Of a stretch of DNA of 64,000 nt, positions 33,632-60,279 are shown one piece after another; position 1 is the stretch's first letter, and every line of letters starts with the position of its first letter. The translations under genes and the position numbers were made by a program. Origin of the DNA: an uncultured Candidatus Saccharibacteria bacterium (GTDB lineage Bacteria > Patescibacteriota > Minisyncoccia > Phycocordibacterales > CSBR16-119); NCBI GenBank assembly GCA_964490365.1, contig CAZBAG010000002.1:6411-70410 (forward strand), in the 5' to 3' direction. Under the pieces are notes generated by a model. That model ran no database searches. It worked only from the letters and a program-made list of their open reading frames with translations, and was not told the DNA's origin.

Positions 33632-34405
33632 TTATAGAGATTTGACCAGAGAAATCCAATCAGAAATTTTAAGGTTTTCAGCTCTTACAGTAGCTGGAAA
33701 ACCTAGTGAATTTACTAACACCTCGAGTTTTTCTTTATCAAAGCCTGCTCCGCCTAGATTTTTTAGTAATGTTTTCCTTTTTTGAGCAAAACCAGCCTTT
33801 ACAAGCTTGAAAAATAGCTCTTTTTCTTTGTTTTTGAGCTTATGTTCTATATGATCAATTAGTAAAATTGCCGAATCAACCTTTGGTTCTGGAGAAAAGT
33901 ATCGTGCAGGGATTTTATCAACAAATTTTGGCTCTCCGAATACTCGAACACTCATTGAAAGAATGCTCTCTTTTCCATCACGAGCAACTACACGCTCGGC
34001 AACCTCTTTTTGAACAATAAGCCCCATACAAGCCGGCTGATTATGAGATTCAAGAAATTTTTCAAGAATAGCACCAGTAATATAGAACGGAATATTAGCC
34101 ACCAGCTTATAGCTTTTTGGTAATTTTGAAATATCAAAGGTAAGAATATCATCCTGAAGCAACACAAGCTTTTTACTTGCAATTGCATCTTGAAACATCT
34201 CGGTAAGTACCGGTATAAGATCTGTATCTTTTTCTATAGCAATCACTTTTCCGGCAGATTCAAGAAGTTTTACCGTTAAAGCACCTTTTCCCGGGCCAAT
34301 TTCAACCACCGTGTCAGCTTCTGTAATACCGGTTGCAAGAATAATGTCTCGGAGAGCTTTTCCAGATTTTAAGAAGTTTTGACCTAAATGCTTTTTCGCT
34401 TTCAT
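33632..34405 (-). CDS. rsmA: 16S rRNA (adenine1518/1519-N6)-dimethyltransferase RsmA/KsgA (ATG start at 34405; the track ORF extends to 34426 via an alternative start)
   Basis: MKAKKHLGQNFL start, SAM motif VVEIGPGKGALT and overall KsgA architecture. Confidence 0.85.
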   Translation of the reverse strand: MKAKKHLGQNFLKSGKALRDIILATGITEADTVVEIGPGKGALTVKLLESAGKVIAIEKDTDLIPVLTEMFQDAIASKKLVLLQDDILTFDISKLPKSYKLVANIPFYITGAILEKFLESHNQPACMGLIVQKEVAERVVARDGKESILSMSVRVFGEPKFVDKIPARYFSPEPKVDSAILLIDHIEHKLKNKEKELFFKLVKAGFAQKRKTLLKNLGGAGFDKEKLEVLVNSLGFPATVRAENLKISDWISLVKSL

Positions 34406-34533
34406 CCCGTTAGAGACCGCAGTCAAATAGTGATAAACTTACTATACGTAACAAATACATAAAGATAGTATATCGTTAATCTACGATAATGTCTCGGGCG
34501 ACTGAGACCTGTCTCTAACGGGATTCATGTATA

Positions 34534-36486
34534 TTAAATATACACAATATTATTTCCAAAACCACTATTGTCTCGTTCTTCCCTATAGATCAAATCTTCT
34601 GGAAGATCATCAAGAAATTCTGATCGGTAGCGAAGTTCGGTATTTCCAAATACCATCCGAATAGTTGCATAACTTAAAAACAATTTCTTTTTTGATCGGG
34701 TTACTGCAACATAGAAGAGTCTCCGCTCTTCTTCTTCGTTATAGTCTTTATTCATCGACTTTTTGCCGTGAGGAAATAGATCATCTTCGAGCCCTACGAT
34801 AAACACATAATCGAATTCAAGACCCTTTGAAGCATGCACAGTCATAAGTTTTACTCCACGTTTTGGTTTCTTTTGCACTGTTTCACTCAATGTGTCCTGG
34901 TCTGATGCAAGCGCAGCTTCTTCAAGCAACAATTCTATCCCTTCAGTTCCAGGAAGTTCATCATATTTTGTAGCAAAGGTAACAAGTTCTTTCACGTTTT
35001 CTAATCGCTCAAGATCTTCTTCAAGTCCTGACGCCTGTAACTCTTTTTCTATACCGGACTGCTTAATCGTATAGGAAATGAGCTCTGAGGGTTTGTGATC
35101 GAGAGAAAAGTTTTTAATCGCTTCAAGCAACTCATAAAAAGATTTTATCTTGAGGCGTGTTTTAAGTGGTAGTTCTTCCTCTTTTCCAGAAAAATATTTA
35201 TCGAGCGTAGTTTTACCAAGACCACGTTTCGGTTCATTAATAATTCTTCGTATATCCGAGAGCGATTCAGGATTTAAGCTTGCACGAATATATGACAAAA
35301 CATCTTTAATTTCTTTTCGATCAAAAAATCGCACACCAAGAACTTGATACGGAAGCGAATATTTCAACATATATTCTTCAAATATTCGTGACTGAAAATT
35401 TGCTCTATAGAGAACCGCAATCGTGTCTGGATTAACCCCTTTATCAAGAAGTGAGGTTACTGTGTCAGCGACAAATTCAGCTTCGTATTTATCATTATAT
35501 GCTTCAAAGAGTGAGATTTGCTCACCTGCTTCGTTTTCCGTAAACAAATGTTTGTGTTTTCTCTGCTTATTTTTTTGAATAATATGATTTGCAACCTCAA
35601 TAATATTTTTTGTTGAACGATAGTTTTGCTCAAGCAGTACGACATCTGCACCAGGATAGTCTTCTTCGAAGTTTAAAATATTGGTGATGTCAGCCCCACG
35701 CCAACTGTAGATATTTTGATCTGAGTCACCAACAACACAAATATTTTTATACTTCTTCGCAAGAAGCTTTGTCAGCAAATATTGAACTGTATTGGTATCT
35801 TGATATTCATCAACATGAATATACTTCCACCTCTCATGGTAAAGCTCTAAAATATCTTTGTGATCTTGAAACAAAAGTACTGTTTTCAAAAGAAGATCAT
35901 CAAAATCAAGCCCTTTTTCTTTAACTTTCTTTTCTTCATATTTTTGCCATACACGAGCAATCACTTGGGCTTGGTATGAATTTGCATTTTTACCAAACTC
36001 ATCAAGACTTGTGAAATTATTTTTTTGATTCGAGATAACACTCTTAAACATTCTCACCGGACTTTGCTTTGGATCAATGTTCAAGTCTTTTAAAACTTCT
36101 CGTATCAAAGAGTTAGTGTCAGCATCATCAAGTATCACAAAATGGCGATGAAGACCTATTTTTTCAGCATGTTCCCGTAAAATTTTTACCGCAAGAGAGT
36201 GAAATGTAGCAATCATCGGACGAAACGTTATATCTTTTGGAAGCATGTGAAAAACACGCTCAGACATTTCTTTCGCAGCTTTGTTTGTAAAAGTAACCGC
36301 TAAAATATGTTGCGGTGAAACACCTTTATGTATGAGATGAATGATTCGATGCGTGACTGTTTTTGTTTTTCCAGCACCAGCACCAGCGATAATGAGAAGT
36401 GGTCCTTCTATATGAAGTACAGCCTGTCGTTGTCGTTCATTAAGTGAAGATAGATAGTCCATGAGGGATACTATACCATAAAACAA
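34534..36486 (-). CDS. uvrD: ATP-dependent DNA helicase UvrD/PcrA family
   Basis: Walker A AGAGAGKTKTVTHR and helicase motifs across 650 aa (DEYQDTN, VGDSDQNIYSWRGA, VHASKGLEFDYVFIVG). Confidence 0.88.
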   Translation of the reverse strand: MFYGIVSLMDYLSSLNERQRQAVLHIEGPLLIIAGAGAGKTKTVTHRIIHLIHKGVSPQHILAVTFTNKAAKEMSERVFHMLPKDITFRPMIATFHSLAVKILREHAEKIGLHRHFVILDDADTNSLIREVLKDLNIDPKQSPVRMFKSVISNQKNNFTSLDEFGKNANSYQAQVIARVWQKYEEKKVKEKGLDFDDLLLKTVLLFQDHKDILELYHERWKYIHVDEYQDTNTVQYLLTKLLAKKYKNICVVGDSDQNIYSWRGADITNILNFEEDYPGADVVLLEQNYRSTKNIIEVANHIIQKNKQRKHKHLFTENEAGEQISLFEAYNDKYEAEFVADTVTSLLDKGVNPDTIAVLYRANFQSRIFEEYMLKYSLPYQVLGVRFFDRKEIKDVLSYIRASLNPESLSDIRRIINEPKRGLGKTTLDKYFSGKEEELPLKTRLKIKSFYELLEAIKNFSLDHKPSELISYTIKQSGIEKELQASGLEEDLERLENVKELVTFATKYDELPGTEGIELLLEEAALASDQDTLSETVQKKPKRGVKLMTVHASKGLEFDYVFIVGLEDDLFPHGKKSMNKDYNEEEERRLFYVAVTRSKKKLFLSYATIRMVFGNTELRYRSEFLDDLPEDLIYREERDNSGFGNNIVYI

Positions 36487-46875: not shown

Positions 46876-48978
46876 TTATGCTTTAGGATTTTTTATAAAA
46901 TCCTTGTTAGCTTCTTTAATAGAAAGTCCAAGTTTACCCATTTCGTTTTTAATAACTTTAACTGGAACAACTTGTCCGAGTTTTAAAACCTCTTCTACTT
47001 TTTCTACTCGAAATGGTGCAATTTCAGAAATATGTATCATGCCTTCTTGTCCATTCATCATTTTCGCAAAGGCGCCAAAGTCTTTAATACCGACAATCTC
47101 TGCATTCGAAACATCTCCTACTTTCCACTCGTGTGTCATATTTTCAATAATCTTTTTCGCTTGTTCTGGACCCTCTGCCTTTCCTGTAATAAATACCGTT
47201 CCGTCATCTTCAATAGTAATTTCAGTTTTTGTCTTTTCTCGAATTTCATTAATTGTCTTTCCTCCCGATCCAATCACCATACCAATTTTTTCTGGACTTA
47301 TTTTCACCACCACAATCTTTGGAGCAAATGGTGAAATATCTTTTCGCGGCGCTGGTATTGCCTCTTTAATTGTCTGTAAAATTGCACTTCGTGCTTTCAA
47401 ACTCTGCATCATTGCTTCAGTAAGAATTTTTCTTGAAACACCATCAACTTTTACATCAAGTTGTATCGCAGTGAGCCCATGCTCTGTTCCGGCAACTTTA
47501 AAATCCATATCACCATAATGATCTTCTGGGCCTTGTATGTCAGTTAAGATTTTATAGTTCTGTTCATCTTTATACATAAGCCCCATAGCAATACCTGCAA
47601 CAGGTGCTTTGATTGGAACACCGCCATCCATGAGGGCAAGCGTCGAAGCACAAATAGAAGCTTGAGATGTTGAACCGTTGGACGACATAGCTTCCGAAAC
47701 TAATCGGATCGTGTACGGAAAATCAACCTTACTTGGTAGCACAACTTCAAGAGCTTTTTCTGCAAGTGCCCCGTGTCCTACCTCACGACGGTTTACAAAA
47801 CCTGCTCGGCCCATCTCACCAACTGAAAACGGTGGGAAATTGTAGTGATGCATGAAGCTCTTACTTTCTTCTGTTTCCATGCCATCAATAAGCTGAGCAT
47901 CTTCTGGTCCACCCAAGGTAAGCGCTGTAAATATATGTGTTTCACCTCGATAGAAAATACCACTGCCGTGAAGCACAGTCGAAAAACCACCTGCTTGCGC
48001 GTACAGTCCACGAAGTTCATCCATGGCTCGGCCATCTGCTCGCACATTGTTTTCTATCGCTTCACTGTGCAAAAAACTATCGAGCTCTGCTTCAAAATAA
48101 TCTATCTCTTTTTTAAAGTTTTCTTGTTCTGGAAACTGTGTCTTTAGGAGCTCCTTCCACATACTTTTTAGTTCTTCCATTTTCGCTTTTCCAGAGGTAC
48201 CAGTAATTGCATGCTCCTTCAGCACAGGACGAATCTTGTCTTCAAACAACGCCAATACTTCATTGGTTAACGTTAAAATTTCTAAAACTTTTTTCGGCGC
48301 TCCAATATCTTTACGAATCTCTTGTTGCCACATTTCAAGTTTAGCGATTTCGACTTCTGCTTTAGCTAAGCCCGCTGCAATAACATCTTCGGGTATTTGA
48401 TATGCAACTGCTTCAATCATATTTATTTTATTATCCTTTCCGCAGACAATAAGATCGTATTCAAAACCTTCTCCTCGAGTTTTTTGTGATGGATTCACAA
48501 GGTATTCTCCATTTCGTTCTATAACACGAACCGCGCCAATTGGCCCATTCCAAGGAATGTTTGAAGTATGAAGAACGAGAGAGGCACCATTCACCGCAAG
48601 AATTCCAGGGTCAATACTTTCATCCATCGCCAAAACTGTAGCGATCACCTGCACGCCATATTCCATGTGCTGATGAAAGAGTGGCCTGAGTGTTCTATCG
48701 ATAACACGCCCAGCGAGAATCGCTTCATCGGTTGGCTTACCTTCTCGCTTCATAAAACGTCCACCTCCAATTTTTCCTGATGCGTAAAACTTTTCAATAT
48801 AGTCAACCGTAAGATTAAAGAAATCAGTAGTGCTTTTTTCTTTTGACATCACCGCTGTCACAAGCACCCTAGTTTCTCCACACGCCATAATTACAGATGG
48901 TGATTGTTCTACTAAATTAGAAAAAGTTGCTGTTATCTTTTTACCTCCAATCTCCACTCCATATTCTTTTTTATTCAT
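46876..48978 (-). CDS. pnp: Polyribonucleotide nucleotidyltransferase (PNPase)
   Basis: 700 aa with two RNase PH-like domains, a KH domain (IGMVIGSGGKTINEI) and a C-terminal S1 domain (KVGDVSNAEIVGIKDFGAFAKM). Confidence 0.92.
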   Translation of the reverse strand: MNKKEYGVEIGGKKITATFSNLVEQSPSVIMACGETRVLVTAVMSKEKSTTDFFNLTVDYIEKFYASGKIGGGRFMKREGKPTDEAILAGRVIDRTLRPLFHQHMEYGVQVIATVLAMDESIDPGILAVNGASLVLHTSNIPWNGPIGAVRVIERNGEYLVNPSQKTRGEGFEYDLIVCGKDNKINMIEAVAYQIPEDVIAAGLAKAEVEIAKLEMWQQEIRKDIGAPKKVLEILTLTNEVLALFEDKIRPVLKEHAITGTSGKAKMEELKSMWKELLKTQFPEQENFKKEIDYFEAELDSFLHSEAIENNVRADGRAMDELRGLYAQAGGFSTVLHGSGIFYRGETHIFTALTLGGPEDAQLIDGMETEESKSFMHHYNFPPFSVGEMGRAGFVNRREVGHGALAEKALEVVLPSKVDFPYTIRLVSEAMSSNGSTSQASICASTLALMDGGVPIKAPVAGIAMGLMYKDEQNYKILTDIQGPEDHYGDMDFKVAGTEHGLTAIQLDVKVDGVSRKILTEAMMQSLKARSAILQTIKEAIPAPRKDISPFAPKIVVVKISPEKIGMVIGSGGKTINEIREKTKTEITIEDDGTVFITGKAEGPEQAKKIIENMTHEWKVGDVSNAEIVGIKDFGAFAKMMNGQEGMIHISEIAPFRVEKVEEVLKLGQVVPVKVIKNEMGKLGLSIKEANKDFIKNPKA

Positions 48979-49204
48979 CCCGTTAGAGATAGTACATTTT
49001 TAATGTGCGTATCTTATTATAAATTTATAAATATCTTCTATCTTCTACTTCTCCACCATGTTCCGTAGAGATTATATAAACTGAACATCTCTAACGGGAT
49101 AAATCCTCTATAAGCTTATTTTCGAGCCTTAGGATTGAAACTTTTGTTTCAACGCTACTCGCCCGAAAATAAACAAATTAAATTTAATATTTTGAGTATA
49201 AATT

Positions 49205-49238
49205 TTTCTACATATAAAAACAAGAACACCGACCCATT
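49205..49238 (-). terminator. Terminator of the 4-TM protein gene (acaccgaccc-att-gggtcggtgt, T tract in minus sense)
   Basis: 10-bp stem. In minus sense it is followed by tcttgtttttat. Confidence 0.55.
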
Positions 49239-49267
49239 GGGTCGGTGTATCTCTTTGGTTGGTTTGA

Positions 49268-59064: not shown

Positions 59065-59140
59065 TGTTTCACGTGAAACATATATAATGTTTCATCTGAA
59101 ACACTTTGATATATACTGAACTCAGGTTTCACCTGAAACA
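59065..59140. promoter_or_regulatory. Array of three 14-16-bp palindromes (TGTTTCA-NN-TGAAACA) overlapping a TATAAT box; candidate operator sites
   Basis: tgtttcacgtgaaaca (59065-59080), tgtttcatctgaaaca (59088-59103) and ggtttcacctgaaaca (59125-59140). tataat at 59083-59088 sits between sites 1 and 2, about 140 nt upstream of the 59227 gene. Confidence 0.45.
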
Positions 59141-59226
59141 ATCGCGTCCCGTTAGTGATTAAGGTTATTAGAAAGCTGTTTTTGGTAAATCATAAAATTA
59201 TGAAGTTTTAAATAATCACTATTGGG

Positions 59227-59649
59227 ATGAAAAAATTTACATCAAAAACACAGAAAATAGGGGAAATTGGTGAAAACCTAGCCTGTAGAAAGTTTGTAAG
59301 GCTTGGATTTGAGATATTGTGCAGAAACTACACCAAACAAGGTGGGGAAATAGATATTGTAGCTCAAAAAGAGGGCATTCTTCATTTTATTGAAGTTAAA
59401 AGTGTTTCATGTGAAATATCAACGATATATAAAGGAGGAAATGTTACATATGAAACAAAAAATACTTATAGACCTGAGGAAAACCTTAGTTTTCAGAAAT
59501 TTTTAAAAATAACAAGAACTATAGAGGTTTACTTCTTGGAGAACAATGTTTCAAATGAAACACCTTGGCAAATAGATTTAGCCTGCGCCCATATTGACCC
59601 TCAGAGAAAGATAGGGAAGGTCGAGATCCTAGAAAATATCATTTTATAA
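59227..59649 (+). CDS. YraN-like (UPF0102) predicted endonuclease
   Basis: GEIGENLACRKFVRLGFEILCRNY...GGEIDIVA...LHFIEVKS matches the UPF0102/YraN restriction-endonuclease-like fold pattern. Confidence 0.65.
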   Translation: MKKFTSKTQKIGEIGENLACRKFVRLGFEILCRNYTKQGGEIDIVAQKEGILHFIEVKSVSCEISTIYKGGNVTYETKNTYRPEENLSFQKFLKITRTIEVYFLENNVSNETPWQIDLACAHIDPQRKIGKVEILENIIL

Positions 59650-59844
59650 ACAAAAACTTATTGACGAATCAATTATTTGGGATTATAGTATTCTCCTGCA
59701 ACGTTCATTCATTTAAAAACCACAGGACAATGGGAAAGGAGGATCTGGAAACGGTAGCTGCAGAGATAGGTATACCTATCGTAGTAGCCAACGACAGGGG
59801 TGTGGTTAAAAAAGAATAGGCGCATAAAGCGCATATAAAGAGGT

Positions 59845-60279
59845 GTGTCAAAGGACGCACCTCTTTATCTACCTACAACACTTTTGACAAAATCATTCTT
59901 TTGTTTAAACTGCAATCAAACGTTCCACATGAAACATGGATTGATAATCATTGGTTTTTTTAAAGAAGACATTTCTTTGGATGCTCCATATGAGACCCTA
60001 CTTGAGGATATAGACCTTAATATGGCCATGGTAAACATAAGCACAATCATCCTCATGAATAGCAACCGACCTCCTGTGGTGGATATCCATGAAATGATAG
60101 TTCAAGAAGCACAAAAAGTAGAACCTATCGTCATCACCCAGAACCATTTAGACATTCCATTTGTTCCAAAGCCAGCTCCTAAAGTTTGGCCAAAGGATCG
60201 CCTGCTCAAGCAACGAAAAAACAAGGTTGTTGGGGGAAATCGATATGGAAAAAAGATATATCGCAAGAGGCCGTTCTGA
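59845..60279 (+). CDS. Hypothetical protein (probable true start MKHGL at 59929)
   Basis: The ORF track start lies inside a hairpin (aagaggtgtg...cgcacctctt). TTGACA and TAAACT promoter-like boxes at about 59883-59912 precede the internal ATG at 59929. The basic C-terminus has no known motifs. Confidence 0.35.
   Translation: MSKDAPLYLPTTLLTKSFFCLNCNQTFHMKHGLIIIGFFKEDISLDAPYETLLEDIDLNMAMVNISTIILMNSNRPPVVDIHEMIVQEAQKVEPIVITQNHLDIPFVPKPAPKVWPKDRLLKQRKNKVVGGNRYGKKIYRKRPF

Follow-up and report, generated by a model that had tools for sequence, protein, structure and literature searches.

Free-standing GIY-YIG homing endonuclease genes, such as the seg genes of phage T4 and those of the I-TevI family, are selfish open reading frames (ORFs) that are present or absent at a conserved site and lie tight against the genes of their host. 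Co-transcribed bacterial MITEs (miniature inverted-repeat transposable elements), among them the Correia elements of Neisseria, ERIC, RUP and BOX, measure about 100–150 bp and display terminal inverted repeats, a short target duplication, many copies and a long hairpin in the mRNA; the Correia hairpins are substrates of RNase III. The element described here was found in a 64,000-nt stretch of DNA (hereafter, the window) from an uncultured Candidatus Saccharibacteria bacterium (contig CAZBAG010000002.1), where inverted-repeat units of this kind abut the rsmA, pnp and yraN start codons; it mixes features of the two groups and conforms to the definition of neither. With a probability of about 80%, the paired motifs bound, as terminal inverted repeats, three MITE-like units, which are non-autonomous members of a family endemic to Patescibacteria, whose parent is a cassette coding for a GIY-YIG nuclease of 95 amino acids. 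All the evidence is computational.

Unlike the GIY-YIG homing genes, this family encodes a catalytic domain only and is bounded by inverted repeats of 12–13 bp and by a 5-nt duplication; many non-homologous genes are occupied, the start codon used is that of the host gene, the stop codon of the nuclease overlaps the rebuilt ATG and the family is accompanied by abundant non-coding miniature copies. Among the traits of a homing gene, the catalytic domain is present, whereas neither a separate DNA-binding domain nor repair copying free of duplications is found. With respect to Correia, ERIC, RUP and BOX, the differences are that the parent is not an insertion sequence (IS) with a DDE transposase, that insertion takes place at the start codon itself with a strong orientation bias, and that the duplication rebuilds the ATG. 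The Rickettsia palindromic elements (RPEs) are also small and palindromic and lie inside coding regions without destroying the gene, as do some copies of the present family (class B, see below); however, they belong to another sequence family and another host, and have no known coding parent or start-codon specificity. Subterminal hairpins conserved as structure are shared with IS200/IS605 and REP/RAYT and suggest the recognition of folded single-stranded DNA, but no HUH transposase is involved here, and those systems have neither terminal inverted repeats nor a target duplication.

As regards the protein, it is closest, by sequence as well as by fold, to the UPF0213 proteins (BH0048, 1zg2; EF2693, 1ywl; Escherichia coli YhbQ) and to the nuclease domain of SLX1. 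The latter is a structure-specific enzyme acting on branched and stem-loop DNA, and this would fit an element defined by hairpins. These proteins are not known from mobile cassettes, whereas the nucleases of the present family form a tight clade with arm-encoded termini (MNPVRD...SLTG). The E. coli pnp leader hairpin, the site of autoregulation by RNase III and PNPase, is likewise a stable stem in the 5′ untranslated region of pnp; the stem of the window differs in being neither conserved in pnp orthologs nor specific to pnp, and in its apparent origin from a mobile element. A literature search, of incomplete coverage and hence compatible with an earlier description, returned nothing on the sequence itself, on GIY-YIG elements that have inverted repeats and duplications, or on UPF0213-type genes being mobile; GIY-YIG domain proteins are listed among the genes predicted as transferred from Patescibacteria (PMC12455944).

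Inverted Repeats at Three Start Codons

A sequence-only reading of the window had pointed to a 12-nt motif that abuts the start codons of rsmA and pnp and has a perfectly complementary distal partner at each gene, and both pairs are indeed present. At rsmA, the + strand carries CCCGTTAGAGAC at 34406–34417, adjoining the ATG (complement of 34403–34405), and GTCTCTAACGGG at 34511–34522; at pnp, it carries CCCGTTAGAGAT at 48979–48990, adjoining the ATG at 48976–48978, and ATCTCTAACGGG at 49087–49098. On the − strand, the perfect complements are found 93 nt (rsmA) and 96 nt (pnp) upstream of the ATG-adjoining arms; in the sense of the mRNA, the gene-proximal arm directly 5′ of the ATG reads GTCTCTAACGGG at rsmA and ATCTCTAACGGG at pnp, while the distal arm reads CCCGTTAGAGAC and CCCGTTAGAGAT, respectively. 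Altogether, CCCGTTAGAGAY and its complement bracket about 117 nt immediately 5′ of the two ATGs, and the window has four exact matches to the 11-mer CCCGTTAGAGA, against zero in 100 shuffles. The inverted repeats are longer than had been noted, the rsmA pair reaching 14 nt and the pnp pair 18 nt (94%), and in this extended form they take in the A and the U of the AUG. The difference between the two loci at the twelfth position, which had been taken for a compensatory pattern, reflects instead the existence of sub-families of terminal inverted repeats, distinguished at arm positions 9–12 and matched on the other arm (AGAGAY/RTCTCT, AGAAGC/GCTTCT and AGAGGC/GCCTCT).

The unit at rsmA (34406–34522, − strand) measures 117 nt including its 12-nt arms. 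Its distal arm is close to the end of uvrD, as described, but not right after the stop codon, since 11 nt (34523–34533) intervene before the stop at 34534–36. This spacer holds a second ATGAAT (34523–34528, − strand), that is, the distal ATGAA of a 5-nt duplication plus an extra T, which represents the original rsmA start, 5 nt past the uvrD stop; the proximal ATGAA (34401–34405, − strand) is the functional start codon. As read from the sequence, the distal ATGAAT now opens an upstream ORF (uORF) of 15 codons (MNPVRDRSQSPETLS), and the rsmA on record, 264 amino acids long, starts at a TTG inside the proximal arm (33632–34426, − strand). The unit at pnp (48979–49098, − strand), of 120 nt, is in the canonical orientation, with its hairpin end on the gene side; its distal flank, ATTTAT (49099–49104, − strand), is no direct repeat of ATGAAT and lengthens the stem to 18 pairs, one of them G-U. 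A third, weaker instance of the motif, which had been listed without a partner, proved real but not partnerless: CCCGTTAGTGATTA (59148–59161) pairs with TAATCACTATTGGG (59213–59226), the latter adjoining the ATG at 59227 of a UPF0102/YraN gene. This degenerate copy of 79 nt (59148–59226, + strand) has 13 of 14 arm positions paired, including one G-U, and its flanking duplication is gone.

Each of the two larger units has a subterminal hairpin, placed at 34491–34508 (+ strand; GTCTC..GAGAC) in the rsmA copy, where it adjoins the ACCTGTCTCTAACGGG end, and at 48992–49009 (− strand; GCACATT AAA AATGTAC) in the pnp copy, where it is weakened. With an nhmmer profile of the miniature elements the rsmA copy scores 48 bits on the + and 33 bits on the − strand; by profile score, it lies in the rare orientation, with an internal polarity opposite to that of rsmA, and the pnp copy has the common one. 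A scan of every long-ORF start in the window found no stem abutting a start codon beyond the rsmA, pnp and yraN loci, and the profile search gave no further copies in the window.

Empty Sites in Related Genomes

Six pnp orthologs (75–86% identity; loci L242–L247) all lack the unit. They keep the leader ..GGGCGAGTAG.GTTGAAAC..GTTTCAATCCTAAGGCTCGAAAA.., followed by 12–35 nt and by the ATG, and in the window the unit is placed between this conserved leader and the ATG. Two rsmA orthologs (78% identity; L248 and L249) are also unit-free and read ...GTGTATATTTAG GGA/GGG ATGAAAGCT..., as are two remoter ones (64–65% identity; L250 and L251); the gap between uvrD and rsmA is only 3 nt in the relatives. 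The corresponding region of the window reads ...GTGTATATTTAA TATAC ATGAA T (117 nt) ATGAAAGCG...; thus, comparison of the filled with the empty site indicates an insertion of 123 nt, with duplication of the ATGAA that is single in L248 and L249.

The pnp leader itself contains a stem-loop (49099–49185, − strand), which belongs to the host rather than to the element, lies upstream of the insertion and is kept in all relatives. Across the window and the six element-free loci, 5 of its 25 predicted pairs show compensatory changes, and it is a better candidate than the stem of the element for a genuine pnp regulatory leader.

A Repeat Family of Patescibacteria

In a search for the 14-mer TCTCTAACGGGATG, each GTDB species was represented by one genome; the figures refer to the 120 matches listed, and the taxonomic labels of the metagenome-assembled genomes (MAGs) are taken as given. 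About 65 of these matches have a partner arm, CCCGTTAGAGA, approximately 105 nt upstream, and nearly all the partnered ones belong to Parcubacteria/Paceibacterota, Saccharibacteria, other Patescibacteria lineages or unclassified MAGs, with two exceptions bearing proteobacterial labels (L068, a 2.2-kb contig, and L114). Among the matches listed, those in other phyla have no partner arm and look like chance. Considering genomes and metagenomes of Patescibacteria together, the element adjoins the start codons of more than 100 unrelated genes; the downstream genes have diverse housekeeping functions and, from their N-terminal sequences, apparently include topA, typA, ruvC, murG, adk, rnhA, recR, pheT and the genes for ribosomal proteins L17, L35, S20 and L9. 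The arm pattern had zero matches in 2.9 million viral contigs, and a phage origin is not supported.

Metagenome contigs were also scanned with the two arms alone, with no ATG required, yielding an unbiased set of 124 elements. The sequence-only reading had made its case depend on the motif being associated with start codons, and the association was borne out: 75 of the 124 elements adjoin an ATG, and a real ORF follows in 67 of 74 (one N-containing copy was dropped). A perfect 5-nt direct repeat flanks 73 of the 124, in the form of ATGAA 45 times and ATGGA 16 times. In 121 there is a 13th base pair, formed by an extra base before CCCG that is complementary to the first base after CGGG (T-A 80, C-G 39, A-T 1, G-C 1). 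In gene orientation, the unit can be written as [ATGNN] T CCCGTTAGAGAY ... (A/T)CCTRTCTCTAACGGG [ATGNN...], where NN corresponds to the first two bases of the second codon of the host gene in 100 of 108 cases (e.g., ATGAA, ATGGA, ATGAG, ATGCG, ATGCC). The flanks follow a single rule, consisting of a 5-nt repeat, usually ATGAA, which restores the host ATG, and of a one-sided extra base complementary to the first base of the repeat. A 6-bp target duplication was rejected, since the sixth base matches at background level and the first base of the flank is in all cases the complement of the left extra base; a 13-bp repeat with a 4-bp duplication was also rejected, as it leaves unaccounted for the identity between the last base of the element and the one that precedes the left repeat (23 vs 4, class B). 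Tandem copies occur in L015, L063 and L099, where the ATGAAT behind one unit begins the next, each copy having entered at the ATG that its predecessor had restored.

The units are polar: the gene-side end is conserved further inward and is preceded by the local hairpin, with 61 copies in forward and 9 in reverse orientation. This subterminal hairpin is fully paired (7/7) in 54 of 132 miniature copies, compared with 0.4% of controls, and it covaries: 42 different sequences form the stem, and each of its positions is occupied by Watson-Crick pairs of several types. Element sizes form a main cluster of 110–123 nt, with smaller forms of about 100, 62–82 and even 27 nt, and a further class of 272–278 nt. 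The minimal 27-nt versions consist of the two arms and a 3-nt loop (L163, 446–472; L124, 3720–3746), and one of them lies between ATGAAT and ATGAAG at a gene start.

The Nuclease Cassette

Nine copies of 272–278 nt align well and form a conserved ORF, which in seven of the nine is in frame from the host-derived ATG. The ORF runs from ATG AAT CCC GTT AGA GAY (MNPVRD) to CGT TTC CTR TCT CTA ACG GGA TGA (KRFLSLTG, stop), and all the full-length copies end in ..CTAACGGGATG. The arms are part of the coding sequence: arm 1 (CCC GTT AGA GAY) codes for residues 3–6 (PVRD) and arm 2 (TCT CTA ACG GG) for the last residues (SLTG), while the TGA of the nuclease overlaps the regenerated host ATG (ATGA). 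The cassette stands immediately after the first 5 nt of the host gene (ATGNN, mostly ATGAA), which are duplicated at the far end; most copies have no start codon of their own and use the host ATG. The same layout was seen in additional copies found by tblastn within the loci and, in a widespread metagenomic copy, the nuclease gene spans 1201–1488 and the host gene starts at 1485. In a Paceibacterota MAG (L017, about 1294–1420 and 2531–2800), two adjacent genes of the cell-wall cluster, one ftsW-like and the other murG, carry one full-length and one miniature copy.

The product is a GIY-YIG domain (PF01541, E 1e-17). A word-indexed protein search returned at least 2866 clusters at 90% identity, mostly of exactly 95 amino acids, the named members being 'GIY-YIG nuclease family protein' of Paceibacterota/Patescibacteria. 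In these full-length relatives, which are distinct from the copies of the window, the residues of the catalytic motif (Y12, Y14, Y25, G27, R35 and E59) are invariant and both protein termini are conserved (MNPVRD, RFLSLTG). At position 2, the protein has N (73), S (9), D, Y, G, A or I, and K, E and Q never occur, as would be expected from an invariant T behind the host ATGNN. The nearest solved structures, by hmmsearch against the PDB, are 1zg2 (BH0048; 9e-10), 1ywl (EF2693; 8e-5) and SLX1 (1e-3), I-TevI scoring 0.14; an AlphaFold model (pLDDT 87) has 1zg2 and SLX1 as top Foldseek matches, in the same ranking as by sequence (probability 1.0, TM 0.55–0.60). On sequence and predicted fold, the nuclease is placed in the UPF0213/SLX1-like branch of the GIY-YIG superfamily, rather than with I-TevI or UvrC. 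In a library at 50% identity, it forms a tight clade of 14 representatives (E <1e-30) within a broad family of 3413 (E <1e-10). The protein comprises the catalytic domain and one C-terminal helix, with no separate DNA-binding domain for a long target.

Distant GIY-YIG genes of 80–90 amino acids (34–43% identity), devoid of arms, are found in the same kinds of genomes (L166, L212, L171 and L015); they could represent the host-type UPF0213 gene or other mobile lineages. Some library proteins (P0241, P0377 and P0371) include much longer chains, of 600 and 237 amino acids, that begin with the GIY-YIG domain; these are probably fusions with host genes, produced by read-through where the second codon of the host gene does not provide the A of the TGA.

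Origin of the Miniature Copies

A DNA profile of the full-length copies matches the miniature ones collinearly, with positions 1 to about 101 corresponding to their first 97 nt or so, and positions from about 255 to 277 to their last 22 nt, approximately (best cases, E 1e-12 and 4e-8). Thus, the miniature copies of about 118 nt lack some 153 internal nucleotides. The deletion brings together two complementary segments of the ORF, ..ACGGAAACGC.. and ..GCGTTTCC.., giving rise to the tight subterminal hairpin; as read from the alignment, the same segments covary in the full-length copies through synonymous changes (AAA/CGT vs AAG/CGC).

Miniature copies at different host genes are 99.1% (L219/L227) or 98.3% (two genes in L066) identical, and sub-families share their interiors across genes; such near-identity at different genes indicates that the miniature copies move, presumably by mobilisation in trans. 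There are three copies in the 64-kb window, and several MAGs have 2–4 among the sampled loci. The units of the window show traits of MITEs, being non-coding, 117, 120 and 79 nt in length, with perfect or near-perfect arms of 12–14 nt and, at rsmA, a target-site duplication whose empty counterpart is known; the family also has many copies, near-identical at different sites. A coding parent with the same ends (272–278 bp) was found, but its sole product is the GIY-YIG nuclease, which is not a known transposase.

A Proposed Mode of Mobilisation

By its position, the cassette uses the start codon and the expression signals of the host gene and returns an ATG to it. In the mechanism that we propose, the GIY-YIG protein would be the mobilising enzyme, and a DNA hairpin or cruciform formed by the arms and the inner stem is probably what it recognises; the target would be cut at RTNNA with a stagger of 5 nt. 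We give about even chances to the proposal that the folded arms, together with the inner stem, are recognised by the nuclease, which would cut for insertion at RTNNA sites, with host repair or ligation completing the process. A circle junction, if formed, would read arm-6 nt-arm, i.e., TCTCTAACGGG-ATGAAT-CCCGTTAGAGA. A bolder version is put forward tentatively, as somewhat doubtful: the cassette may be an autonomous transposon with the SLX1-like nuclease of 95 amino acids as its sole enzyme, representing a new class and the smallest autonomous DNA transposon of prokaryotes, characterised by recognition of its own hairpin and by start-codon capture, with miniatures at about 1 in 20 gene starts in some Patescibacteria, maybe co-opted as 5′ stems that tie host translation to an upstream AUG.

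Several points weigh against the interpretation of the units as derivatives of a mobile nuclease cassette. To our knowledge, GIY-YIG enzymes are hydrolytic, none of them is a transposase and no strand-transfer chemistry has been described for them; the link between the nuclease and mobility is drawn from sequence comparisons. A tblastn search of the 64-kb window with the nuclease gave no match, the copies of the window being miniature ones only, and no full-length copy from this genome was seen; the pnp and yraN copies are without a clean direct repeat. The flank rule fits no standard cut-and-paste geometry, and none of the models constructed accounts for its one-sided extra base. Arm conservation is partly an ascertainment effect, as the samples were drawn with exact arm sequences. 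The AUG of essential genes, apparently those for L17, L35, S20 and L9, topA and pheT, is enclosed in a stem of 13–18 bp, and the route of translation is a difficulty. Finally, about 40% of the unbiased sample, here called class B, has a C...G terminal pair and flanks such as GTAAAC/GTTTAC and lies away from start codons; the association with start codons is thus a property of the A-type majority, and not of every member of the family.

The alternative that survives best, although an unlikely one, is that of an ordinary MITE moved by an unlinked conventional transposase, e.g., of the DDE type, with the GIY-YIG ORF as a mere source sequence or passenger. Terminal inverted repeats and a short, loosely palindromic target duplication (RTNNA) are a hallmark of DDE enzymes, and the absence of known strand-transfer chemistry among GIY-YIG enzymes speaks in the same direction. 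However, it is the nuclease ORF itself whose coding ends form the arms, and a full-length unit measures no more than 272–278 bp in all; moreover, the 1.7 Mb of fetched loci contained neither a longer element, a transposase or another enzyme gene bounded by these arms, nor arm pairs 320–4000 bp apart, as a larger autonomous element would have. Thousands of copies retain the catalytic residues, an argument for selection on the nuclease activity.

Classical homing alone, in which the nuclease cuts element-free alleles and repair copies the cassette in, the many occupied genes being the result of rare illegitimate events, is quite improbable. It would be consistent with a selfish GIY-YIG ORF that is polymorphic for presence and absence at orthologous sites, and with the finding of one identical 95-residue protein at a single conserved locus in 24 contigs, where there is no sign of recent full-length movement. 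Homing, however, leaves no target-site duplication and needs long flanking homology, whereas here many genes each have a 5-nt duplication of their own; tandem insertions, near-identical non-coding miniature copies at different genes and a protein of 95 amino acids devoid of a DNA-binding domain for a long target also argue against it.

The Stem in the mRNA and Translation

Folding of the leaders, which the sequence-only reading had called for, predicted a long-range closing stem at rsmA, pnp and yraN that covers the first two bases of the AUG; on the mRNA strand, the three units have fold energies of -45.6, -38.2 and -27.1 kcal/mol and z-scores of -4.7, -5.3 and -4.7. Both arms are very probably inside the transcripts, because an intrinsic terminator (49226–49248) and the leader lie upstream of the pnp copy, the leader being between the terminator and the distal arm, and because rsmA is packed against uvrD, the insertion starting 5 nt after the uvrD stop.

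From this geometry had come the suggestion of an RNase III-processed, pnp-like autoregulatory leader common to the two genes. Such a cis-regulatory stem, evolved in the host to control translation or the RNase III/PNPase-dependent decay of pnp, rsmA and other genes, would agree with the stability of stems that include the AU of the AUG (z-scores from -4.7 to -5.3), with the probable presence of both arms in the transcripts, and with an excess of open frames, described below, that could mean selection for translational coupling. Yet it is very improbable, slightly more so than homing: the unit is missing from all eight orthologous loci (six of pnp and two of rsmA), adjoins, together with target-site duplications, the start codons of over 100 genes unrelated in function, and is homologous to both ends of the nuclease ORF, while pnp has a different conserved leader structure upstream. 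Mismatches between the arms have no preference for G-U over A-C, as judged by eye from the small sample of listed arm sequences, and an Rfam scan of the window gave only six tRNAs at gathering score, with no match to the unit. The mRNA stem over the AUG is most probably a by-product of insertion rather than a pnp-type autoregulatory leader.

Least tenable of all is a DNA-level site, whether an inverton, an integron attC-like site or paired operators: inverted repeats do flank about 95 bp upstream of genes, and GTTAGAG/CTCTAAC loosely resembles the attC core sites GTTRRRY and RYYYAAC, but the motif order GTTAGAG ... CTCTAAC on both strands is opposite to that of attC (RYYYAAC ... GTTRRRY), there is no recombinase or integrase context and the hosts are housekeeping genes, free inversion is hard to reconcile with the strong polarity (61 forward, 9 reverse), the promoter scans found no sigma-70-like promoter above chance inside the units, and the direct repeats and the ORF homology would be unexpected, so that all three readings were rejected. 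The same scans led to abandonment of the idea of an outward-facing promoter.

Shine-Dalgarno sites are scarce in the genome, being found at 7 of 43 long ORFs by a lenient test, and none is near the proximal ATG. Many genes of the window have a TATAAT-like box 6–9 nt before the ATG (e.g., 23509, 6820, 42300, 36462 and 26250 (− strand)), which suggests that leaderless mRNAs, or mRNAs with very short leaders, are widespread in this genome. Across the family, TATAAT-like boxes peak 6–9 nt upstream of the distal ATG (22/108) and Shine-Dalgarno-like motifs are rare (8/108); thus, many host genes may be leaderless or short-leadered, in which case the mRNA would begin with the element. In 21 of 94 miniature copies, the distal ATG opens a frame that reaches the stops of the proximal arm, either UAA at -7 or UGA overlapping the AUG, compared with 8.7 +/- 2.7 in shuffles and with 2 and 0 for the other two frames; this enrichment fits either a recent origin or selection for coupling. 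An obligatory in-frame uORF was rejected, as element lengths show no 3-nt periodicity. With low confidence, host translation in full-length copies may occur by termination-reinitiation at the overlapping UGA and AUG (AUGA); for miniature copies, the stem might be opened by initiation either at the distal AUG or, if the mRNA is leaderless, at its 5′ end, and processing of the stem, e.g., by RNase III, would be an equally tentative alternative.

Class B Copies and Other Repeats

Class B copies are mostly intergenic, and some are in frame inside long ORFs. They obey the same flank rule as the copies at start codons, which supports the view that the direct repeat arises from the insertion mechanism rather than from translation. 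Stop-free, in-frame copies of 103–111 nt are present inside long ORFs, of up to 869 codons, in L153, L157, L173, L177, L199 and L204, with inserts of the TPLE...SLTG type. Four class B copies with GTTTAC flanks (L126, L132, L153 and L204) occupy, in type IV pilin-like genes, the exact place of the prepilin cleavage motif, G|FTL(I/V)E; there, the inserted peptide would fall in the leader removed by prepilin peptidase.

The region of the yraN copy contains another repeat: seven copies of a 14-bp palindrome, GTTTCAnnTGAAAC, four exact and three with one mismatch, are clustered in 870 bp around and inside yraN (59066–59935), against 0.59 expected per window. This cluster could be an array of binding sites for a regulator or another small repeat.

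Implications

If the proposed reading is correct, thousands of database entries for 'GIY-YIG nuclease family protein' in Patescibacteria are a mobile element that inserts within the first two codons of host genes, and a possible role, to be tested, is provided for the uncharacterised nucleases of the UPF0213/YhbQ type; should the nuclease alone be sufficient, the known enzymology of transposition would be extended. A recurrent annotation artefact would be explained as well, namely the spurious N-terminal extensions and mis-called starts exemplified by the 264-residue rsmA product and by the GIY-YIG proteins of 600 and 237 amino acids. Since essential genes tolerate a stem of 13–18 bp over their AUG in a genome with few Shine-Dalgarno sites, the elements would offer a test bed for translation initiation in these organisms, including leaderless mRNAs, 70S reinitiation and processing of the leader. 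Lastly, the elements would be markers of strain-level variation and of horizontal exchange in uncultured Patescibacteria.

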